Source: Desulfobacterales bacterium (GTDB lineage Bacteria; Desulfobacterota; Desulfobacteria; Desulfobacterales; JAHEIW01). Taken from it: 42,185 nt of DNA. The notes beneath the pieces are model-generated. The model searched no databases. It worked only from the letters and a program-made list of their open reading frames with translations, and was not told the origin of the DNA. The position numbers and the translations under genes are program-made. Location: NCBI GenBank assembly GCA_050122435.1, contig JASFIX010000001.1, positions 1 to 42,185 on the forward strand. The letters are read 5' to 3'. Shown in pieces: positions 667 to 40,500 of this stretch; within the stretch, counting starts at the first letter, position 1, and each line of letters opens with the position of its first letter.

Positions 667-820
667 AAGGTTCAAAGGTTCAACGTTCAGAGGTTCAGAG
701 GTTGAGCAAAACCAAAAAGCATGAAAAGAGTAAGAAAGATAAAGGTCCGGCAGCCAACTTGTAGCTCGTCGTATCGTTTCAAGGCAATAACCCTGAACCC
801 AGAACCCAGAACCTGAATGT
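667..820 (+). repeat. Tandem-repeat palindrome element, GGTTCA/TGAACC family, copy 1
   Basis: Five 8-nt units run from 668-707 (aggttcaa aggttcaa cgttcaga ggttcaga ggttgagc). An about 85 nt spacer follows, then TGAACCC/AGAACCC units at 794-816. Positions 667-704 match the reverse complement of 35991-36028 at 35/38. Confidence 0.8.
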
Positions 821-1893: not shown

Positions 1894-4359
1894 ATGTATG
1901 ATTATAAGCGCAAGATAGAAAAAGGATTTTATTATTTGGGCATCGGGGTCATTCGTTACCGTTGGGCTATTTTGCTGATGACGGTTGTGGTGAGCGGATT
2001 GGCGGCCACTCAGCTCCCCAAACTCAGTATCGCCACTTCTGTAGAAAGCATGTTCACGCGGCATGATAAAGTACTTGCCGATTATCAGCGATTTCGCAGA
2101 CAATTCGGACGTGATGAAGAAATTGTGCTGCTGATCTCCTCCTCCGATATTTTCAGCCGTGAATTCCTCACCACACTCAAGCAATTTCATGAGGATCTGG
2201 AGAATTCACTACCGCTGTTGAAAGAGGTCAGTTCGCTGGCCAATGCACCCTATATCGAGCCCGTTGATAGCGGGGTGCGTGTCGGGGGCTTTCTCGATAA
2301 CCTGCCGCGGACAGAAGAAGAAGCGCAGCAGTACAGACATCGCGGGAATTCCTATCCAGGATTCCAGAATCTGTATTTTACCCCGGATGGCAAACATGCC
2401 ATCGTTGTTATCAAAACGCAGGCGATCTCGGCGTTGACGGCCGATGGCCTGCGATTGCGGGGTTATGCCCGGGGTGTACGCGGGGCATCAGAGCCTCCTC
2501 CCCCTGCGGCACAACAGTCGATATCACAGGTAGAGAATATTGCCGTCATCGGCATCGTTGAGACCGTCATCAAGCAATACCAGACGCCGGACTTCAGCAT
2601 TGCCTTCAGTGGAACGCCGGTCTACCAGTATCATGTCGAGCCGATGGTCCGCTCTAACATGAAGAAGATGTGTCTCGCGATCATCCTTGTTCCGGTTCTG
2701 TTCATGCCAATTGTGTTTGGTCGGGGCACGGGTGCTTTCTTGCCCCAGGTGACGGCCATTTTGGGCCTGATGGTTGCTTTAGGATTGATGGTCTTGTTGT
2801 CGGTTCGCCTCAGCCTGACCTCGTCTATGTTGCCTTCCATCCTGCTGTCCATCGGCCTGACCGCGCCTATTCATTTCCTGGTGGTCTATTATAAGTACCA
2901 AAATCGGGTTGGGAAGTTCCGTGGTATTGTCGCCACCATGAAGCACTCCGGTTTTCCGATCACCATGACCAGCTTTACAACTGCAGCGGGATTACTGTCA
3001 TTTTCATTCTCGGAAATCGTACCGATCGCACATTTAGTGAATTTCACAATTATTGGAATTCTCGCCATTCTGGTGTTTACGCTCATCACCATGCCGGCAC
3101 TTCTCTCCATAATGCAGGTTGTTGCCGGTGTGAAAAAGGGTGAAGCAAACTATGAGACTTCCATCTACAACCGAGCCCTGATGGCGCTGGGTCGTCTTGG
3201 GGTTACCCGGCCTTACCTCGTTTTGATTCTGTTCCTTGCGGGTACCCTTTTCGTGGGTTTTAGCATCCCCCGGCTTCATTTTTCCCACAACCAGCTACAC
3301 TATTTCACTGAAGATTCCGATTTCATGCGGCAGGTCCGGTTGATTGAAGCACAGACCGGCGGATTTCGGGCGCTGGAAGTAATGATTGATTCGCAGCGGG
3401 AACGGGGAATCATCGACCCCGACCTGCTTCAGGCTATCGAGCAGTTGGATTCCTACCTGAGATCTGAGACGGATATTCAGGGGCGCGCTTATATTGGTAG
3501 AACCCGATCTTTCGTCGATCTCATCAAGGAAATCTCCTGTGCAACAACAGGACGGGATCAGCTTCCATGCCCGAATCCTGAAGACGAACCGACCCTGGCC
3601 GAGCAATTCGATCACATCGGTCGCATTGTCCCTGAGACCTTACAAAAATACACGGATGCGGATTTGCGCATCGGTCGTTTGACCGCCATGATGTACTGGA
3701 GAGATGCTGCCCATGATGTTGATTTCATTGCACGGGTGCGGAAAAAGGCCGCAACGTTGTTCGACTCCGGTATCGACCTGGCGGTAACCGGCGTTGCGGC
3801 CATCAATTCCGGCATCATTGATGCGATGATGAGCAGCCTGGCCATCGGTTACAGTACGGGATTTCTGCTGATTACGGCCTTAATGATCCTGGCCGTTGGC
3901 GATGTGCGTCTGGGACTATTGGCCATGGTTCCCAATCTGTTGCCGATTGCCATTGCGCTGGGCGTTATGGGGTATCTGGACATCCCCCTGAATACATACA
4001 ACCTGATTGGCGGCAGTATCCTCATCGGATTGGCTGTGGATGATACCATCCATTTTTTCCATAACTTCCGAAAGTACTACTCGAGGTCCGGCGATATCCA
4101 CTTTGCTGTCAGCGAGACATTAAAATCCGCAGGCCGGGCCTTAATGGCAACAACGCTGATTCTGGTTGCCAGTTTCTGGATGCGACTATTCAGTGACCTG
4201 AAAGTGGTCGCTGATTTCGGTTTGGTGCTGGGGATTGCTTTACTGGTGGCCTTTCTGGCCGATGTATTGCTCGCGCCGGCCCTGTTGCGAATATTTTATG
4301 GGGCTGGGCCGATGGATTCTTTGAAACACTTTGATGTCCCGAGGGCGCAGAATATATGA
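1894..4359 (+). CDS. RND-superfamily / MMPL-type exporter (two 6-TM bundles with two large extracytoplasmic loops)
   Basis: 821-aa ORF with a duplicated hydrophobic architecture and the typical motif GLAVDDTIHFF near the C-terminal bundle. Confidence 0.85.
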   Translation: MYDYKRKIEKGFYYLGIGVIRYRWAILLMTVVVSGLAATQLPKLSIATSVESMFTRHDKVLADYQRFRRQFGRDEEIVLLISSSDIFSREFLTTLKQFHEDLENSLPLLKEVSSLANAPYIEPVDSGVRVGGFLDNLPRTEEEAQQYRHRGNSYPGFQNLYFTPDGKHAIVVIKTQAISALTADGLRLRGYARGVRGASEPPPPAAQQSISQVENIAVIGIVETVIKQYQTPDFSIAFSGTPVYQYHVEPMVRSNMKKMCLAIILVPVLFMPIVFGRGTGAFLPQVTAILGLMVALGLMVLLSVRLSLTSSMLPSILLSIGLTAPIHFLVVYYKYQNRVGKFRGIVATMKHSGFPITMTSFTTAAGLLSFSFSEIVPIAHLVNFTIIGILAILVFTLITMPALLSIMQVVAGVKKGEANYETSIYNRALMALGRLGVTRPYLVLILFLAGTLFVGFSIPRLHFSHNQLHYFTEDSDFMRQVRLIEAQTGGFRALEVMIDSQRERGIIDPDLLQAIEQLDSYLRSETDIQGRAYIGRTRSFVDLIKEISCATTGRDQLPCPNPEDEPTLAEQFDHIGRIVPETLQKYTDADLRIGRLTAMMYWRDAAHDVDFIARVRKKAATLFDSGIDLAVTGVAAINSGIIDAMMSSLAIGYSTGFLLITALMILAVGDVRLGLLAMVPNLLPIAIALGVMGYLDIPLNTYNLIGGSILIGLAVDDTIHFFHNFRKYYSRSGDIHFAVSETLKSAGRALMATTLILVASFWMRLFSDLKVVADFGLVLGIALLVAFLADVLLAPALLRIFYGAGPMDSLKHFDVPRAQNI

Positions 4360-6318: not shown

Positions 6319-6371
6319 AGTGGTTGTCAAAAAAACGTTCCGATATTCGAACGTTTTTTTCTACAACCACT
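6319..6371. terminator. Bidirectional intrinsic terminator between convergent genes
   Basis: A 12-bp stem pairs aaaaaaacgttc (6329-6340) with gaacgttttttt (6349-6360). An outer 9-bp stem pairs agtggttgt with acaaccact. The A7/T7 tracts give a U-run in either direction. Confidence 0.7.
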
Positions 6372-8606: not shown

Positions 8607-9857
8607 TTATTCCCCTCCCTCATAGCGCTGTTCAATTATCAGCGCCGGTTTTAACAGCAGCGAGACCACAAAGATGCCCAGCGCCAGGATACCGAGGGTA
8701 ATGCTGACCTCAACCCAGCTGGGCGCGTAATTCACCACTTCCCCAAGGGGTGAAGGCACCAGGCCGGGCACAATCAAACCGATGCCTTTTTCGATCCAGA
8801 TCCCTAAAAACAGCAACATACAGGCCGGTACCAGTACTTTGGGATTGTTCTTGCCCGGGTTAAACGCCATGGTCAGGGTGCCGATGAGGTTCATGACGAT
8901 GGCGGTCCAGATCCACGGGACCAGGGCGGTGTGGCCCTTGAGACCAAAATACAGGTAGATGGCCGGCTGACTGTGATGGGTGGGCAGATAGAATTCCTTG
9001 AAAACCTCCGAAAAGAGCATGATCAGGTTAATAATGGCCGCGACCACGCTGATACGCCGGATTTTGTTAAAGACCTGATCTTCAACGCGAAATGAGGTTG
9101 TGGACTGAACGATATTTAGCACGATAATGATCAACGCCGGGCCAGCCGCAAAAGCCGATGCCAGAAAACGGGGGCCCATCAAGGGGTTGTTCCAAAAAGG
9201 CCGGGCCGGCAGCCCCTGGTACAAAAAGGCCGTCACCAGATGGATTCCGAAGGCCCAGAATATGGAGATAAAAACGAGCGGCAAATATAATTTTTCGTTG
9301 GGTTTACGGTGGTAATAATGACAAAACAGGATGTAGGCCGGCACCAGCAGGTTCAAGACCAGGTAGCCGTTTAGCACCAGCACGTCCCAGGTCAGCAGTG
9401 ATGTGGGCCAATTGAACAGCCCGATTACCGGTATCATGTGCCATGCGTTCCAGGGGGCACCCAGGTCCACAAACACGAACAACAAGCACATGACCAGGGC
9501 GCCGATGGCCACAACTTCACCGACGATCACCACCTTGTGCAGGTCTTTGTCTTTAAAAATGTAGGAAGGTAAAATAATCATCACCGCGGCTGCGGCCACG
9601 CCCACCAGAAAGGTGAAATTAGCGATATAAAATCCCCAGCTGACGATATCCGACATATTCGTGGCTGCCAGGCCTATTTTTAGTTGAACAAAATAGGCAT
9701 AGATCCCCAGCACCATCAAAGCGGCCAGAATACACAGATATATCTGATATACCAGCCCGCCCGACAGGCTCCAGGTGATGACATCTTTGACAAATGCGAT
9801 GACTTCTCCAATGATAGACGATATGTGTGTCATTATATTTTTTTGTGTCGTTTCCAT
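8607..9857 (-). CDS. NrfD/PsrC-family integral membrane quinol-interacting subunit
   Basis: 416-aa polytopic membrane ORF located directly downstream of a Tat-signal 4Fe-4S protein gene. Confidence 0.8.
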   Translation of the reverse strand: METTQKNIMTHISSIIGEVIAFVKDVITWSLSGGLVYQIYLCILAALMVLGIYAYFVQLKIGLAATNMSDIVSWGFYIANFTFLVGVAAAAVMIILPSYIFKDKDLHKVVIVGEVVAIGALVMCLLFVFVDLGAPWNAWHMIPVIGLFNWPTSLLTWDVLVLNGYLVLNLLVPAYILFCHYYHRKPNEKLYLPLVFISIFWAFGIHLVTAFLYQGLPARPFWNNPLMGPRFLASAFAAGPALIIIVLNIVQSTTSFRVEDQVFNKIRRISVVAAIINLIMLFSEVFKEFYLPTHHSQPAIYLYFGLKGHTALVPWIWTAIVMNLIGTLTMAFNPGKNNPKVLVPACMLLFLGIWIEKGIGLIVPGLVPSPLGEVVNYAPSWVEVSITLGILALGIFVVSLLLKPALIIEQRYEGGE

Positions 9858-14972: not shown

Positions 14973-14998
14973 AAACATTTGACTTAAGTCAAATGTTT
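14973..14998. promoter_or_regulatory. Perfect 26-bp palindrome containing a CRP/FNR-type box TTGAC-N4-GTCAA
   Basis: The sequence is aaacatTTGACttaaGTCAAatgttt. It lies about 240 bp upstream of the napD start in a 443-bp AT-rich intergenic region. Confidence 0.5.
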
Positions 14999-15186
14999 CA
15001 TACCAAAATACTATGAAATAGAAATAGGGTAAACACTGTATTTTTTAATTTTAAATACAGCATTTTAGGCAAGCGCTTCTAAAGGAAGATCAATCAAGGA
15101 GCATGAGGTGAAGTATTTTACGCATTAGAAAGTTGATGAATTCCTGGATGTGGTTTGATGCATGTGTCCCATGTATCTTTCGGTTT

Positions 15187-16122: not shown

Positions 16123-16617
16123 TTAAGGCTCGGTGGGAATCCACATAAGCTCCGGGTTTAGCCTATCGGTCCAGGGAATGTCCGAGTTTCGCCAGCCGTT
16201 TTTAAGACGCTTGCCGTAAAACGGACTGGAAGGATCTTTAACCCGATCGCCCTCGAAGCCGTCGGTAACCGAATAAGCAGTCTTGAAACCGGCCGATGCC
16301 ATTGCATTTACAGCGGCGGCGCTGCGGTTGCCGGAGCGGCAGATCACCAGAATCGTATCGGAGGCTTTGAATTTTCGGCTGACTTCAGCGATAAAGTTCG
16401 GGTTTACCCTCATCAAAGGTCCTTTGCTGCGTATCGCCATTTTATAATTGAACAATTGAAAGGGGATATTATGGGCCATTGGGGCATGGCCGACAAAAAT
16501 GTATTCTTCCGGCGTTCGGACATCCAGAATATTTATTTTATTTTTGTCCGCCAGCCACATTTTATAGGCTTCTTTATATCCAAATTTATCTAAAAATATC
16601 ACAAAAAATTTCGTCAT
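16123..16617 (-). CDS. Single-domain rhodanese-like sulfurtransferase
   Basis: ILDVRTPEEY...GHAP and active-site loop CRSGNRS. Start 16617 overlaps the upstream gene by 32 nt. An alternative ATG lies at 16560. Confidence 0.8.
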   Translation of the reverse strand: MTKFFVIFLDKFGYKEAYKMWLADKNKINILDVRTPEEYIFVGHAPMAHNIPFQLFNYKMAIRSKGPLMRVNPNFIAEVSRKFKASDTILVICRSGNRSAAAVNAMASAGFKTAYSVTDGFEGDRVKDPSSPFYGKRLKNGWRNSDIPWTDRLNPELMWIPTEP

Positions 16618-16915
16618 CTGCGGACATACATTGGGTCTTCAGCAGTTTATATTTGGCCAGAAGGTCTTTACCGGTCTGAGAAAGGCGCGATCCCTCTTTG
16701 CGGTCGGTATGAACAATACGGGCATTCATGTGTTTTTCAGTCGTCTTGATTTTGCTCCAGACTGCTTTGTACGACATTCTCATTAATTTAGCGGTCTGAT
16801 TCATAGAGCCCGTCTGATCAATATGCTCCAGGATTTTCGCTCGACCTTCCCCGATAATAATGTTGTTGTTTTCATCCACAATCCACTGGCTTGACCTTAA
16901 TTTGAGCTCTGCCAT
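16586..16915 (-). CDS. ModE-N-terminal-like winged-helix regulator (no Mop domains)
   Basis: 109-aa ORF. GEGRAKILEHIDQTGSMNQTAKLMRMSYKAVWSKI matches the ModE/LysR-type HTH pattern. Confidence 0.65.
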   Translation of the reverse strand: MAELKLRSSQWIVDENNNIIIGEGRAKILEHIDQTGSMNQTAKLMRMSYKAVWSKIKTTEKHMNARIVHTDRKEGSRLSQTGKDLLAKYKLLKTQCMSADDEIFCDIFR

Positions 16916-16976
16916 TGTCTATTCTCCATAAGCTGTAACTCAAAAAAATTGTTAGTACGAAAATACAAAATGGGTC

Positions 16977-17075
16977 AGGAGGCTGGAAAGCTAGGAAGCT
17001 GGAAGGCTTGGAGGCTAGAAATAATTCATCCCTTCAAGCTTTCTGGCTTCCCAGCATCCAAGCCTTCAGGCTTAG
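16977..17075. repeat. Tandem-repeat palindrome, unit GGARGCTN (period 8)
   Basis: Five units run from 16978-17017 (ggaggctg gaaagcta ggaagctg gaaggctt ggaggcta). An AT-rich spacer follows, then five complementary-type units at 17031-17070. 17002-17012 pairs perfectly with 17057-17067. Confidence 0.8.
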
Positions 17076-17080
17076 TTTAA

Positions 17081-18073
17081 TTAGCCTCCTATTGCCCGCA
17101 TAGCCCTTTGACAAGCGTTTTGATGGTCCTTGGTATTCAGATGGTGACCGGCCGGTTTTTGAGCCACCGACCGCCTGAATATGTCGATGATATCGTCTTG
17201 GGTTGCCCCGGCTCTCAGTGCGGCTTTAATATCGATTTCTTCCCTTGAAAACAAACAGGTCTTTATCTTGCCGTCAGCGGTCATCCGCAGGCGATTGCAT
17301 GAACCACAAAAATGCCAGCTGATGGGTGCAATAAAACCGACCTTTCCGACCGCACCCGGCAGCTTACAGAGTCTTGCCGGCCCGTAGGAATCTATGGCCG
17401 GCTCAATTTTAACCCGGTCAATTCGATGGATCTTCTTCATAAATTCTTCAACGGGTACAAACAATGTTTCATAGTCGCCATAGGCTGAGCTGTTGGTGGG
17501 CATTAGTTCGATAAAGCGCACATGGTAAGGCTTGGTCAGGGTTAGAGCAGCCAAATCTTCGACTTCATCATCATTGATGCCGCGCATGACCACGGTATTG
17601 ATCTTAATGGGGCGCATCCCGATCTCTTCAGCACGTTTGATGCCGGCCAGCACGCGTGGCAGCCAATTGTATCCGGTTATCTTTTCGAATCGATCCGGCT
17701 TCAACGTATCCAGGCTGACGTTGATTCTGCTGACACCGGCCTTAAATAGCGAATCGGCCATCTCTTCCAGATAAATCCCGTTGGTGGTCAGGGCCAGACT
17801 TCTTAAGCCGTCGATCTCTGAAATCATCCGACAAAATTCGACCACCCCTTTTCTGACCAGGGGCTCGCCACCGGTGATTCGGATTTTGGTGATACCGCTT
17901 GCGGCCGCTGCTTTAGCGACGTTGAGCATTTCCTCGTAGGTCAGAATCTCTGAACGCGCTAGATGACTGCGGCCTGAAAACTGCGTGCAGTAATAGCATT
18001 TCAGGTTGCAATGATCGGTTATGGATATGCGCAGGTAATCAATTTTCCGTCCGTAACTATCAACAAGTTTCAC
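17081..18073 (-). CDS. moaA: GTP 3',8-cyclase MoaA (radical SAM, Moco biosynthesis step 1)
   Basis: GTG start. DYLRISITDHCNLKCYYC radical-SAM motif and C-terminal CxxC...C cluster (CGSCNRLRMTADGKIKTCLF). Confidence 0.93.
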   Translation of the reverse strand: MKLVDSYGRKIDYLRISITDHCNLKCYYCTQFSGRSHLARSEILTYEEMLNVAKAAAASGITKIRITGGEPLVRKGVVEFCRMISEIDGLRSLALTTNGIYLEEMADSLFKAGVSRINVSLDTLKPDRFEKITGYNWLPRVLAGIKRAEEIGMRPIKINTVVMRGINDDEVEDLAALTLTKPYHVRFIELMPTNSSAYGDYETLFVPVEEFMKKIHRIDRVKIEPAIDSYGPARLCKLPGAVGKVGFIAPISWHFCGSCNRLRMTADGKIKTCLFSREEIDIKAALRAGATQDDIIDIFRRSVAQKPAGHHLNTKDHQNACQRAMRAIGG

Positions 18074-18140
18074 TGTTTTTCAGCTCCATTTCAATTGTCG
18101 GATTCGTAGCAATAAGTGTCTCACACAAGGCCGCCTTATC

Positions 18141-18245
18141 AGGTTTGCCGGTTTGCCAGTTGAGCCGGTTGAGCCCGTTAAAAAGGAATGCGATCATATA
18201 TTATTTTTAACGGGTAAACAGGCTAACGGGCAACGGGCTCAACCC
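18141..18245. repeat. Tandem-repeat palindrome, units GGTTTGCC / GTTGAGCC
   Basis: ggtttgcc x2 plus (a/g)gttgagcc x2 at 18142-18175. About 29-nt AT spacer. Complementary units at 18209-18245. Perfect 13-bp pairing of 18167-18179 with 18232-18244. Confidence 0.8.
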
Positions 18246-18273
18246 AGCATGACGCGAGTGTTAAAAACAGTTT

Positions 18274-19299
18274 CTATTTGCCGAATGGGCAATGCGGATA
18301 CAAACACTCCTCACAATCTTTACACAGCCCCCCATGGCCCAGAAACGCAAGCTCGGCCTTGCCGATTTTTTCGCCGGCTAAAATTCGCGGCAGCACCAGA
18401 TCAAGCACGGTAATGCGGTGAAACAGGCCGCAGGCCGGCACCCCCAGCAGCGGCACATCCCCCACATAAGCCACCAGAAACATGGCCCCGGGCAGCACTG
18501 ATGCTCCATAGTGCATCTCGCCGGCACCGGCAGCACGAATTCCCTGGCGGGTAACATCGTCGGGATCCACACTCATGCCGCCGCTGAGCATCAGTAAATC
18601 ACAGCCCTGCTCCAGATGGGAACGAATAGCCGATCGGATCATCTCAGCATCATCCGGTGCAAAAGCGATCCCGGCCACCTCGGAGCCCAGGGCTTTAACC
18701 TTTTCTGTCAGGATCGGCGCAAAACGGTCTTCAATCAGACCGTGGTAAACTTCGTTGCCTGTAATCACCAGTCCCACTTTTGCTTTATGGATAGGGTTCA
18801 CCGCAAGGACGGCGCCATTCTGACGGGCAATGGCTGCGGCTCGTTCGATAGGCGCGCGTTTCATGATCAACGGGATGGCACGGGTAGCCGCCACCAATTC
18901 CCCTTTTTTGACAATGGTGTGGTTGTGCAGGGTGGCGCACATGACTTCATCAACCATGTTAAAGGCAGCCAAAGCGCTGGTATTCACCGCAAACAGGCCA
19001 TCTTTTCCTGCCAGCAGCTTTATTTTTCCTTCTCGTGGCTCGTCCTTCCAAACAATGCCGTCACCGGCCAGCGCATCTGCTAAAATGGTGGCCGCCTGGT
19101 CCTCATGAATTTCGTCGTCGTCAAGGTCGATGACGAAAAGGTGATTTTTTCCCATTTTCTGAAGACGGCACAAATCTTCGTTACAGACTTCGTGCCCTTT
19201 ATGAAAGGCAGCGCCTTTGAATTCTCCGGGACGAATCTCGGTCATGTCGTGAGCTAATTTAGTACCGACGGCATCTTGCAGTTTGATCTTTTTTAGCAT
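18274..19299 (-). CDS. Molybdopterin-binding (MoCF-biosynthesis domain) protein with C-terminal Cys-rich tail
   Basis: 341-aa ORF. The central region is MogA/MoeA-domain-III-like (VGLVITGNEV...DLLMLSGGMSVDPDD). C-terminal tail is CKDCEECLYPHCPFG. Confidence 0.65.
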   Translation of the reverse strand: MLKKIKLQDAVGTKLAHDMTEIRPGEFKGAAFHKGHEVCNEDLCRLQKMGKNHLFVIDLDDDEIHEDQAATILADALAGDGIVWKDEPREGKIKLLAGKDGLFAVNTSALAAFNMVDEVMCATLHNHTIVKKGELVAATRAIPLIMKRAPIERAAAIARQNGAVLAVNPIHKAKVGLVITGNEVYHGLIEDRFAPILTEKVKALGSEVAGIAFAPDDAEMIRSAIRSHLEQGCDLLMLSGGMSVDPDDVTRQGIRAAGAGEMHYGASVLPGAMFLVAYVGDVPLLGVPACGLFHRITVLDLVLPRILAGEKIGKAELAFLGHGGLCKDCEECLYPHCPFGK

Positions 19300-19380
19300 T
19301 GTTGGACTCCCTTTGTGTAGATACCATTGACCTTGTTTAAATGTATCTGTGCTTTTTCTCTCCAGGTGTTTTTTTGACCG

Positions 19381-20058
19381 TTAATAGCAATTCGTTTCAA
19401 TAATTTCTGCGTCTTTGTGGGTTTGCGTATGGTTGTCTCCCGGTTTCCAGTTCATATCCGGCCAGGTCACCTCGCAGGCATCTGAAAAATAGGTTTCCTG
19501 GGTGCAGGGCCGGCAGAGAACCGCCCCATCCTGAACGACCTCGCGCTGATCGCGCACGATCTGGCCGCAGCGGCTGCATGGGATCTTATAACGGGTCGGT
19601 CCGGGTAGATCACAGTCATCGATTTTCACTCTGACCTCCTGTACCCGAAATAGGACGCTGTCGGGCATACGTTTGTATGCTTCCAACTGCTGAGGGTGTT
19701 TTTCAGCAATTTCAGGTGCATAAGCGCTGGCCAGATTGCGGGCCGCTTCCGTGGAGACCACCCGAAAGGCCTTACCGGTGTCAAGATTGACGAAGGTAGC
19801 GGCCATAATGCCGTAATCCATGAATTTCAATGAGCGCCGTCCCAGTTTAACACCGGTAACATGGGCCACCGCATCGGCGGTGCATCGGTCCATCTCCACA
19901 TAGACAATCAACTTTTTAATTTGATCATGGCGCTTAGGCTCGTCCAGTCCAATCAGCCGACAGCCCAGCATGGCCATGCGGACGCCCACCACCTGCCCGG
20001 GGCAAAGGTGGCCGTGGGCGTCAGCTGAACTTTCTAGCAGAACTTCAAAGGTTTCCAT
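19381..20058 (-). CDS. FmdE-family protein with C-terminal zinc-ribbon
   Basis: Hallmark HGHLCPGQVVGVRMA plus CSRCGQ...CRPC. I place the start at ATG 20058, which has an aaagga SD. The track's GTG at 20184 reads through the repeat. Confidence 0.8.
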   Translation of the reverse strand: METFEVLLESSADAHGHLCPGQVVGVRMAMLGCRLIGLDEPKRHDQIKKLIVYVEMDRCTADAVAHVTGVKLGRRSLKFMDYGIMAATFVNLDTGKAFRVVSTEAARNLASAYAPEIAEKHPQQLEAYKRMPDSVLFRVQEVRVKIDDCDLPGPTRYKIPCSRCGQIVRDQREVVQDGAVLCRPCTQETYFSDACEVTWPDMNWKPGDNHTQTHKDAEIIETNCY

Positions 20059-20081
20059 GATCTGTGCTGTCCTTTCTTCAA

Positions 20082-20175
20082 CAGGTTTCAGGTGTCGGGT
20101 GTCAGGTGTCAGATCTGATCGGTCTGAAATTTCTGCGCGTCGGATGCTGAACACCGAAACCTGACACCTGAACAC
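20082..20175. repeat. Tandem-repeat palindrome, unit GGTGTCA (period 7)
   Basis: Units ggtttca ggtgtcg ggtgtca ggtgtca run from 20084-20111. A 36-nt spacer follows, then tgaacac cgaaacc tgacacc tgaacac at 20148-20175. It sits in the 5' leader of the FmdE-like gene. Confidence 0.8.
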
Positions 20176-20193
20176 TTTTGCCACATGGTGGCA

Positions 20194-35902: not shown

Positions 35903-36030
35903 AAGGTTCCGGGTTCTGGGTTCAAAGGTTCAAGGTAAGGCAGTCGCGGCGGGCTGTCCTGTTTCAAATTTTCATCTGTCTTCTGTTAACCAACCTCTGA
36001 ACCTTTGAACATTGAACCCTTGAACCTTCC
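35903..36030 (-). repeat. Tandem-repeat palindrome element, GGTTCA/TGAACC family, copy 2 (inverted relative to copy 1)
   Basis: The reverse complement of 35991-36028 equals 667-704 at 35/38. The reverse complement of 35903-35924 equals 794-815 at 20/22. The central part is not conserved. Confidence 0.8.
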
Positions 36031-40394: not shown

Positions 40395-40424
40395 AATCGA
40401 AAAGCCGTTTAAATTGAACATAAC

Positions 40425-40500
40425 CACGAAAACACGAAATTTCAAAAGCACGAAAAGCTTAATTTTTTCTTTCGTGTTTCAGTTTTTTCGTGCTTTCGTG
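40425..40500. repeat. Tandem-repeat palindrome, unit CACGAAAA (period 8)
   Basis: Units cacgaaaa cacgaaat ttcaaaag cacgaaaa run from 40425-40456. A 12-nt AT spacer follows, then ctttcgtg tttcagtt ttttcgtg ctttcgtg at 40469-40500. Units pair 1-4', 2-3' and 4-1'. Confidence 0.85.

Follow-up and report, generated by a model that had tools for sequence, protein, structure and literature searches.

Short imperfect palindromes of the REP/BIME/REPIN type are dispersed through the intergenic DNA of Proteobacteria, including within operons, as sequence families whose members often lie in inverted pairs; they are targets for insertion by IS110-family elements, show no target-site duplication and have secondary effects on mRNA stability. 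In a REPIN, two copies of a unit that already folds into a hairpin are combined in inverted orientation, and REP sequences have a conserved GTAG-type head. In Drosophila and other eukaryotes, Foldback (FB) transposons carry long inverted termini made of short tandem repeats around a variable centre, with a variable number of units; these elements are kilobase-scale and are moved by a Mutator-like transposase.

In Geobacter metallireducens, paired 'global regulator binding sites' of classes 1-3 lie on opposite strands at variable spacing (Aklujkar et al. 2009, PMC2700814). Each site is a tandem array of 3-5 units, 7-9 nt in length (GTTGCTYN, TCTCCGTS[Y] or MTYCTGA). The sites are intergenic and fall into several families per genome, each family having tens of members; an element of the IS110 or IS481 family is inserted at a constant distance from many class 1 pairs, and the authors proposed putative binding by IHF/HU (PMC2700814). 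The intervening sequences (IVS) of 23S rRNA are selfish stem-loops with terminal inverted repeats and a stem of about 28 bp, which are inserted in the loop of an existing helix, are excised by RNase III, optionally hold a loop ORF of the four-helix-bundle or S23p family (PF05635) and are distributed sporadically with horizontal spread (PMC4990558). Intergenic tandem units of 7 nt are also found as the STRR heptamers of cyanobacteria and the TAACTGA repeats of Beggiatoaceae, which are abundant in particular lineages and common to distant phyla (PMC4679880).

Here we describe six intergenic palindromes in a window of Desulfobacterales DNA (the whole stretch that was analysed, 42,185 nucleotides), the architecture of which is already on record, uncharacterised, in G. 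metallireducens (2009). On balance, we read the six loci as ORF-less copies of several dispersed foldback-repeat families that look selfish and are REP-like or IVS-like. The features are as follows:

667..817, no strand assigned: GGTTCA-family copy (Tandem Repeats Finder (TRF); fold z -3.0; alignment A3)
16955..16975, no strand assigned: decayed CACGAAA arm, GTACGAAAATACAAAAT, adjoining locus 1 (alignment A1)
16977..17075, no strand assigned: locus 1, GGARGCT family (inverted repeat I2; TRF)
18142..18245, no strand assigned: locus 2, compound arms (TRF; fold z -3.9)
20059..20184, minus strand: apparently spurious 5' extension of the FmdE ORF through locus 3 (ORF 19381-20184; position of the FmdE domain)
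20082..20175, no strand assigned: locus 3, GGTGTCA family, period 7 (inverted repeat I1; TRF; fold z -3.0)
35903..36030, no strand assigned: GGTTCA-family copy, in the opposite orientation to the other window copy (inverted repeat I3; TRF; fold z -5.0; alignment A3)
40422..40500, no strand assigned: CACGAAA-family copy (inverted repeat I4; TRF; fold z -5.4)

All six tandem-unit palindromes claimed in the preliminary description are present, at essentially the coordinates it gave. TRF delimits arrays of period 7-9 at 667-703/789-813, 16977-17021, 18142-18179, 20082-20112, 35902-35936/35992-36028 and 40469-40500, and the top four short-range inverted repeats by length in the whole 42 kb window (I1-I4) are four of the six loci. 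Locus 1, flanked by the moaA stop codon (17081) and the start of an HTH gene (16915), has a left arm of about five GGARGCTN units (16977-17021), a loop of about 11 nt and complementary units in the right arm (17033-17075); in the decayed arm beside it, window TTTTGTATTTTCGTACTAACAATT aligns to TTCGTGTTTTCGTGATTAACAATT of locus L007 (A1). Locus 2, between a MoCF_biosynth gene and moaA, begins at 18142 and not, as first reported, at 18141; it has compound arms, with GGTTTGCC twice on the outside and GTTGAGCC twice on the inside of the left arm (18142-18175) and a complementary arm at 18213-18245, and its apex (18176-18212) is a separate 9-bp palindrome, CGTTAAAAA-N19-TTTTTAACG. The arms of locus 3 (20082-20112 and 20147-20175) enclose a centre of 34 nt between a CMD-family gene and an FmdE gene. 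The two GGTTCA copies have arms at 667-706 and 789-817 around an unrelated 80-nt centre, flanked by plus-strand genes (Cyclase family and DUF3786), and at 35903-35936 and 35990-36030, between a SpoIIE-domain gene and moeA. In the CACGAAA copy, CACGAAAN units (40422-40457) face NTTTCGTG units (40466-40500), with a Cys/Met PLP enzyme gene and a hydrolase gene as neighbours. The same-strand intergenic placement claimed for the set holds throughout, with six of six loci between co-directional ORFs and none in a supported CDS.

Each of the six loci folds into one long imperfect hairpin (30-45 bp; -31 to -50 kcal/mol; z -3.0 to -5.4), the stability of which was equalled by 0-1 of 200 dinucleotide shuffles per locus; the minimum free energy structures hold 28-50 base pairs in total, mostly in the main stem, and the folding bears out the suggestion that the hairpins can pair in several registers. 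For locus 1, the mRNA strand gives z -4.6 and the opposite strand a stem of 43 bp, 8 of them G-U (-60.7 kcal/mol). Within an arm, the 7-9 nt units follow one another as direct repeats, and the arm has no internal self-complementarity. The comparison with shuffled controls that had been called for places the loci far above expectation: requiring across the window that a k-mer be repeated in one arm and its complement be repeated in the other, we find three loci against 0.01 expected at k = 5 (at least 3+3 copies), three against 0.33 at k = 6 (at least 2+2 copies) and two against none at k = 4 (at least 4+4 copies). In all sequences analysed, an inverted partner lies no more than 260 nt away from 36% of arrays of period 6-10, compared with 1.3% for displaced flanks. 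The whole window gives no Rfam match at the gathering threshold, and the sole flag in a terminator scan of it is the 5-bp inner hairpin of locus 1, on the non-coding strand. Intrinsic terminators were considered and rejected, as no U-tract follows the stem at any of the six loci and their placement matches the background of spacer types. Integron attC sites were likewise rejected: of the R''/R' core sites (RYYYAAC/GTTRRRY) that would be expected at the palindrome ends, only GTTGAGC/GCTCAAC of locus 2 is present, by chance, the flanking genes are conserved and syntenic and are not cassettes, and the window holds no integrase.

The unit sequences had been described as locus-specific apart from the GGTTCA pair, from which it was argued that a copied repeat family would look different. 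Neither statement survives comparison with other genomes. The CACGAAA, GGTTCA, GGTGTCA and GGARGCT units are dispersed families, with further copies at other loci, among related Desulfobacterales MAGs and on metagenome contigs; the loci therefore represent several copied families with one common architecture. The GGTTCA left arm matches unit for unit in five copies, from both window loci and three other genomes, while the centres of the same five copies are unalignable (A3). A complete CACGAAA palindrome stands in nine relatives at the spot downstream of moaA that is orthologous to the decayed arm at 16955..16975, and the plus strand of the 40422..40500 copy is near-identical to the moaA-downstream element of L007-L009. 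This family accounts for at least 57 of 120 metagenome matches, on unrelated contigs of 38-69% GC; in an identical scan of viral contigs, only 1 of 70 matches to the CACGAAA 15-mer had an inverted partner, and there were no plasmid matches. The polarity of the family is fixed, with CACGAAA preceding TTTCGTG in 57 cases and following it in 3, and its arms are asymmetric: among 44 copies, the first linker bases face each other as A/C or G/T in 25 and are complementary in only 10 (18 expected). Judged from the sequences, this conserved polarity and asymmetry point to shared descent and not to independent palindromes. CACGAAA centres differ even between copies on one contig. GGTGTCA elements are also present in L119, L049, L078, L236 and L237, GGARGCT units of locus 1 recur inside the loop of the L131 CACGAAA element, and the locus 2 unit type is confined to the window and the identical L001. 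Element density depends on the lineage, with about 1 for every 10 kb of the window and of close relatives and none in 148 kb of more distant relatives.

The elements replace one another at orthologous positions. The spacer of locus 3 also holds GGTGTCA in L002, with GGTTCA in its place in L003 and L013, and spacers orthologous to locus 2 hold GTTATT, CGAAAT or CTTTGCG units. In the comparison of orthologous spacers, a check proposed at the outset, a hairpin of some kind is kept downstream of moaA in most relatives, although its family varies, and in L010 and L011 it has been lost by deletion. Loops of elements often hold other families or perfect palindromes, and we infer from this nesting that insertion has been into the loops of pre-existing palindromes. 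The heptamer copy number varies by one or two units between samples. At 56 CACGAAA copies, no target-site duplication was detected (offsets 0-12, k = 2-9), the only signal being a self-complementary AT/GC dinucleotide by which the palindrome is lengthened; the loci compared showed no cleanly bounded insertion polymorphism, none of the 30 window ORFs has a transposase-like domain, and no RAYT gene was identified.

Set against the described systems, the window loci share with the Geobacter paired sites the opposite-strand arms, the tandem 7-9 nt units and the variable distance, and the compound arms recall Geobacter sites that fall in two classes at once (PMC2700814). The units differ from the Geobacter consensus, being GGTTCA, GGTGTCA, GGARGCT, CACGAAA and GGTTTGCC/GTTGAGCC, and no IS110 or IS481 insertion at a fixed distance was seen in the loci examined. 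Like REP sequences and REPINs, they are dispersed intergenic imperfect palindromes in sequence families; unlike a REPIN, each arm is a direct-repeat row and not a hairpin, and there is no GTAG-type head. The resemblance to FB transposons is one of architecture, with no sequence or protein relationship. STRR and TAACTGA repeats differ in forming direct arrays, mostly upstream of start codons, with one inverted case among 170 sets (PMC4679880). The long stem formed from terminal inverted repeats is shared with the IVS, and PF05635 genes lie between tandem-unit arms in other genomes, the window copies having no ORF; unlike the IVS, the present elements are in mRNA spacers and not in rRNA, and their arms consist of short tandem units.

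CACGAAA arms enclose genes for GxxExxY (PD-(D/E)XK) nucleases in L050, L224 and L216, three genomic contexts that are unrelated to one another, and other GxxExxY genes have CAGGATT or ATCTGTG arms on their flanks (L054 and L237). Four-helix-bundle genes (PF05635, S23p, '23S rRNA IVS') are likewise enclosed by inverted tandem-unit arms in L236, L258/L259, L248-L257 and L268/L269, the units being heptamers in L236, L258, L248 and L268. An inverted-repeat score as high in the flanks was found for only 11 of 253 ORFs of the long loci, and several of these are the mini-genes themselves; the mini-gene sample is small, with about 14 contexts, and was selected for resemblance to two seed proteins. Around the genes of one GxxExxY subfamily, most tandem arrays are in direct and not in inverted orientation. 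Neither gene type occurs in the window or in the approximately 280 kb from L001-L023, so that the window families are tied to such genes through L236 and L237, where mini-genes stand alongside GGTTCA, GGTGTCA and CACGAAA elements as well as GTTATT. Since arms elsewhere bracket mini-genes, in some genomes that also hold the window families, the window loci are read as ORF-less members of an IVS-like and REP-like foldback class. None of the mini-genes was found flanked by GGTTCA, GGTGTCA or GGARGCT arms.

In the scheme that we propose, each copy comprises two inverted arms of 2-5 degenerate 7-9 nt tandem units around a centre that is free to vary. The elements would colonise intergenic spacers, with a preference for the loop of an existing palindrome, would supplant one another over evolutionary time and would gain and lose units by slippage. 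Because arms elsewhere enclose a single small gene, short copies may be deletion derivatives of mini-elements or empty landing sites for them. In the transcript, the arms would pair into a long imperfect stem that, by analogy with the 23S rRNA IVS, would probably be cleaved by RNase III; insertions inside operons might be tolerated because the stem would be cut, and cleavage of the mRNA or stabilisation of its 3' end would be a side effect. As the hairpins would in any case form on the mRNA, a by-product effect on its processing is likely. Mobility in trans and the identity of the mobilising protein we infer, as we do RNase III processing; family membership, fixed polarity, nesting, turnover, the absence of an orientation bias and the association with mini-genes are observed. 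A bolder and decidedly tentative extension is that the tandem-unit palindromes are the termini and footprints of unrecognised, very small mobile elements, the active forms of which carry a single GxxExxY or four-helix-bundle gene, with the nuclease homing into palindrome loops and the arms acting as RNase III-cut insulators that make insertion in operons or rRNA harmless. Against the foldback-repeat reading, centres that are unrelated within a family would be atypical of elements that travel in one piece, and arm conservation could instead be due to a host protein that binds the arms.

Several other explanations deserve consideration. The preliminary description envisaged host-selected RNA elements, each hairpin being kept for processing, stabilising or attenuating the polycistronic mRNA at its junction, and this would suit the co-directional genes around all six loci (several of which begin 7-25 nt past a stop codon), the strong hairpins at each and the retention of some hairpin downstream of moaA in most relatives despite the change of family. 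We regard it as unlikely, because copies occur in either orientation relative to genes, the antisense strand gives the better fold in four of the six loci with a mixed direction among orthologues, and the elements are distributed over co-directional, convergent and divergent spacers (50/11/9) much as in the background (325/73/77). Together with the turnover and the L010 and L011 deletions at orthologous spacers, this lack of orientation, strand or placement bias leaves a selected role in processing, stability or attenuation unsupported; nor does such a role fit with the missing U-tracts and Rfam matches, or with an arm sequence conserved across hosts of 38-69% GC, which is unexpected for a purely structural RNA. 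Conservation of arm sequence and polarity, but not of centres, is what would be expected if each arm were a binding array for a protein of the nucleoid-associated or ribbon-helix-helix type, the two inverted arrays being drawn into a looped nucleoprotein complex. MetJ binds cooperatively to 8-bp metboxes and omega to 7-bp heptads, and the 7-8 bp periods here would fit such binders. For the identical Geobacter architectures, putative IHF/HU binding was suggested (Aklujkar et al., PMC2700814). The many unrelated unit types per genome would require many cognate proteins, divergent, promoter-containing spacers are not enriched, and nesting, turnover and the enclosed selfish-looking mini-genes would be left unexplained, making DNA-level arrays of this kind distinctly unlikely.

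A mutational origin, in which ordinary hairpins are lengthened in place by replication slippage in one arm and templated correction of the other, with no mobility, would be compatible with the differing unit numbers between samples, the several possible pairing registers and the varying centres. Yet identical ordered series of variant units recur at different loci in different genomes, and one 7-mer recurs with one polarity and one arm asymmetry across very different hosts; independent origin can account for neither. Present alignments also point towards clustering of arms by family across loci and not by locus. We regard this origin as very improbable. Least credible of all are classical MITEs, that is, derivatives of DDE-transposase insertion sequences that have internal deletions and move by cut and paste: the terminal inverted repeats do contain several repeated sub-sites, and CACGAAAA resembles MuA end sites (the Mu right end is TGAAGCGGCGCACGAAAAACGCGAAAG), but target-site duplications are missing at offsets 0 to 12, centres are unrelated within families, full-length insertion sequences with these arms are absent from the 1.6 Mb of loci examined, the viral-contig scan placed no such palindromes at phage ends and plasmid matches are nil.

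If the foldback-repeat reading is correct, a noticeable share of the intergenic DNA of Desulfobacterales and many environmental bacteria would belong to one class, operon transcripts would likely be cut or stabilised as a side effect of the repeats, and the three hairpins here should not be taken as dedicated regulators of molybdenum-cofactor genes. It would also link the palindromes of intergenic spacers to the intervening sequences of 23S rRNA, long a puzzle, and offer testable roles for the GxxExxY nucleases and the four-helix-bundle 'IVS proteins', both very large families whose function is unknown. Should the mini-mobile-element reading hold as well, it would give both families a first function and explain both where the 23S rRNA intervening sequences came from and why heptamer and octamer arrays occur in Geobacter, cyanobacteria and other lineages. 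On the foldback-repeat reading, such repeats would break assemblies and produce false ORF extensions. Two false N-terminal extensions had been suggested in the window: that at 40395-40451 is a plausible candidate, and that at 20059-20184 is plausible, the FmdE domain running from residue 15 of the ORF that starts at ATG-20058, with GAAAGGA upstream.

The six tandem-unit palindromes of the window are best explained as ORF-less members of several IVS-like, REP-like foldback repeat families. The window is an unremarkable piece of chromosome from an uncultured member of the Desulfobacterales, and it contains regulators and molybdenum-cofactor genes as well as two molybdopterin-oxidoreductase clusters. 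No transposase domain was detected among the 30 window ORFs scanned, and the moaA region recurs identically in a 5-kb contig of MAG GCA_050049495.1. Tandem Repeats Finder identified arrays of period 7–9 at each of the loci of the preliminary description:

667-817, intergenic, GGTTCA units
16977-17075, intergenic, GGARGCT units (locus 1)
18142-18245, intergenic, compound arms (locus 2)
20082-20175, intergenic, GGTGTCA units (locus 3)
35903-36030, intergenic, GGTTCA units
40422-40500, intergenic, CACGAAA units, oriented opposite to its own genes

The set is real and beyond chance. Four of the six are the four longest short-range inverted repeats of the window, every locus folds as a single long imperfect hairpin (z of −3.0 to −5.4), and a scan of the whole window for any k-mer that recurs on one arm while its complement recurs on the other yielded, at the strict setting, 3 loci against 0.01 expected. 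As described previously, flanking ORFs are co-directional at all six and the ORF extension reading through locus 3 is spurious. Periods differ between the two arms of a locus, and ungapped arm-pair detection misses such loci.

The units had been considered locus-specific, which proved wrong: alignment of orthologous spacers from 22 loci surrounding moaA homologues, together with metagenome contigs, shows that unit types recur across loci and genomes. Downstream of moaA, a CACGAAAN / NTTTCGTG palindrome, the same element as window 40422-40500, is present in nine relatives, another relative has TGGAAT units and two retain a deletion remnant alone; the window itself has GGARGCT units adjoining the decayed CACGAAA arm at 16955-16975. 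In the spacer upstream of moaA, the units among relatives are GTTATT, CGAAAT or CTTTGCG. The locus 3 position is occupied by GGTGTCA in L002, as in the window, and by GGTTCA in L003 and L013 (all three from the moaA-homologue set). The left arm of GGTTCA elements matches unit for unit between the two window loci and three copies from other genomes, and the centres of these five cannot be aligned. Orthologous sites exchange one unit type for another.

Some spacers of this set hold other repeats. In L013 (11100-11170), the loop of the CACGAAA hairpin downstream of moaA contains an insertion of about 150 nt whose core is a near-perfect 24-bp palindrome, GGAGCGGCTTCCAGCCGCGA...TCGCGGCTGGAAGCCGCTCC, a different kind of repeat. 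The spacer from FmdE to MoCF_biosynth has no repeat in the window, a CACGAAA palindrome in L013 and a one-sided direct GCCTTGN array (CTGTGCCTTGAACCTTGCGCCTTTTGCCTTGAAG) in L002 (around 8690-8725), L008 and L014, its unit being similar to that of the AAGGCNN arms found elsewhere around four-helix-bundle genes; relatives are too diverged here for the boundaries of empty and occupied sites to be drawn.

The CACGAAA family extends well beyond these relatives. A metagenome scan with CACGAAAACACGAAA returned at least 120 matching stretches, and at least 57 of the 120 listed are full palindromes under a strict pattern, on contigs of 38 to 69% GC that also carry other unit types in the same architecture. 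Carrier contigs with a source name include Gemmataceae and Desulfobacterales. Across all sequence examined, an inverted partner accompanies 36% of arrays of period 6–10 versus 1.3% for displaced flanks. Elements number about one per 10 kb in the window and in close relatives; 148 kb of more distant relatives contain none. A distant-mode plasmid search with the CACGAAA element gave no significant match. A different arrangement of the AACACGAAAACACGAAAACAC unit occurs in L061 (5902-6011), where three direct blocks are separated by short conserved linkers and have no inverted partner.

Arm anatomy points to descent from shared sequences. Polarity is fixed, with CACGAAA first and TTTCGTG second in 57 cases versus 3, two of the exceptions being merely neighbouring elements. 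The first linker bases pair A/C or G/T in 25 of 44 CACGAAA copies—one asymmetric form in two orientations—and are complementary in just 10 of the 44, versus 18 expected. The arms share this non-complementary asymmetry and therefore derive from a common ancestral sequence rather than from independent palindromisation. Long 'spacers' are nested elements, either other tandem-unit families (including the GGARGCT and GGTGTCA of the window) or perfect palindromes. Unit number also changes: one or two extra AAGGCNN heptamers distinguish samples (L248, L249 and L251, around 3380-3410) in the spacer that comes after the four-helix-bundle gene of a lexA-imuB-dnaE2 cassette, a live slippage polymorphism.

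Among possible roles, the preliminary description named control within the operon, for which we found no support. With crude ORF calls, co-directional, convergent and divergent gene contexts account for 50, 11 and 9 elements compared with 325, 73 and 77 for all spacers, matching the background of spacer types. The antisense strand is the better fold at four of the six window loci, with orthologues mixed, and of 10 informative cases (co-directional spacers, A/C versus G/T linker form), 6 have the G-U form on the mRNA strand, such that neither folding energy, G-U counts nor linker form reveals an RNA strand preference. Rfam gave no match in the window, and neither a terminator scan nor the gene-context counts showed terminator-like placement. 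The six loci have no U-tract, in contrast to an inverted repeat between convergent genes at 6319-6371 (AGTGGTTGTCAAAAAAA / TTTTTTCTACAACCACT) that looks like a conventional bidirectional terminator. Host RNA-control elements consequently carry lower weight than foldback repeats.

Two further structures of the window stand apart. A perfect 26-bp palindrome (AAACATTTGACTTAAGTCAAATGTTT, 14975-15000) looks operator-like and does not belong with the tandem-unit elements; it lies upstream of the minus-strand molybdopterin-oxidoreductase cluster, in a long AT-rich region. At its apex (18176-18212), just upstream of moaA, locus 2 has a separate 9-bp inverted repeat, CGTTAAAAA-N19-TTTTTAACG. A ModE-N-like HTH gene (16586-16915) comes after moaA; the apex was considered as a ModE-type operator and rejected, its spacing fitting the published ModE consensus poorly.

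Tandem-unit arms are statistically associated with two families of small genes. A search for distant arm pairs, which found no enclosed transposase in the loci examined, revealed in L050 a CACGAAA element with a centre of 410 nt that is one complete ORF of 122 aa, encoding a GxxExxY protein (TIGR04256, E = 1e-38; PDDEXK_3, E = 2e-37). L054 holds the sole other such gene in the initial loci, with CAGGATT / AATCCTG tandem arms on its flanks. Among GxxExxY homologues retrieved with flanking sequence, CACGAAA arms lie about 20 nt from both gene ends in two further, mutually unrelated contexts (L224 and L216), ATCTGTG / CACAGAT arms enclose the gene in L237, and an ORF-less CACGAAA palindrome directly follows it in L234. 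One subfamily has, after its genes and usually before them too, a module of 110 nt with (AATCCTG)x3 at its end, mostly in direct orientation. Heptamer arms likewise enclose four-helix-bundle genes (PF05635, the '23S rRNA IVS protein' family) in L236, L258/L259, L248-L257 and L268/L269, with flank inverted-repeat scores of 16–24.5; a score of at least 13 was reached by only 11 of 253 ORFs of long loci, several of the 11 being these mini-genes themselves. The two families can occupy the same AAA_31 | Poly_export spacer in different genomes, as a GxxExxY gene (L239, 1501-1881) or a four-helix-bundle gene (L247, 3001-3357); the AAA_31 gene is ParA-like. L236 and L237 combine mini-genes with ORF-less copies of families that belong to the window itself (GGTTCA, GGTGTCA, CACGAAA and GTTATT), and neither gene type occurs in the window or the moaA-homologue loci L001-L023.

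The architecture itself has been recorded but never explained. In Geobacter metallireducens, paired opposite-strand sites, each of 3–5 tandem 7–9-nt units at variable distance (Aklujkar et al. 2009, PMC2700814), are exactly of the window type; similar multicopy sequences are found between genes in G. bemidjiensis. IHF/HU binding was the guess offered for the former, many class 1 pairs of which contain IS110- or IS481-family insertions (PMC2700814). Such protein-binding arrays, like slippage in place, which the heptamer polymorphism would suit and the shared arm asymmetry speaks against, are given lower weight than foldback repeats. So are classical MITEs: neither these nor Mu-like ends fit the absence of target-site duplications, none being found at CACGAAA elements. 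The Mu right end contains CACGAAAA and CGCGAAAG, which we treat as motif coincidence; in viral contigs, taken as a control, the CACGAAAACACGAAA 15-mer occurs 70 times, and the scan detected an inverted partner for only 1 of the 70 and did not put these palindromes at phage ends.

The foldback-repeat reading has a precedent in 23S rRNA intervening sequences, described as selfish stem-loops whose stem, formed by terminal inverted repeats, is cut by RNase III and whose loop in some cases holds an S23p ORF (PMC4990558). By analogy, the stems of the present elements are probably cut by RNase III. We suggest that the elements move, that the mover could be the GxxExxY nuclease or another factor, and that short forms may be derivatives of, or landing sites for, gene-bearing forms. 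PDDEXK_3 is catalogued as a family without assigned function for which many transfers are recorded (PMC3424549). Literature searches found no paper with the repeat strings and no link between GxxExxY or four-helix-bundle genes and tandem-unit flanks, and returned eukaryotic work only for foldback elements in prokaryotes. The unexpected and testable aspect is this connection with two protein families, both large and of unknown function.

An ordinary Epimerase_2 gene in L237 (13012-14106) also has a very strong flanking inverted repeat (score 47.5). Two inverted copies of the hairpin plus AATCCTG module probably form its arms, and the gene may be a host gene caught between two elements.
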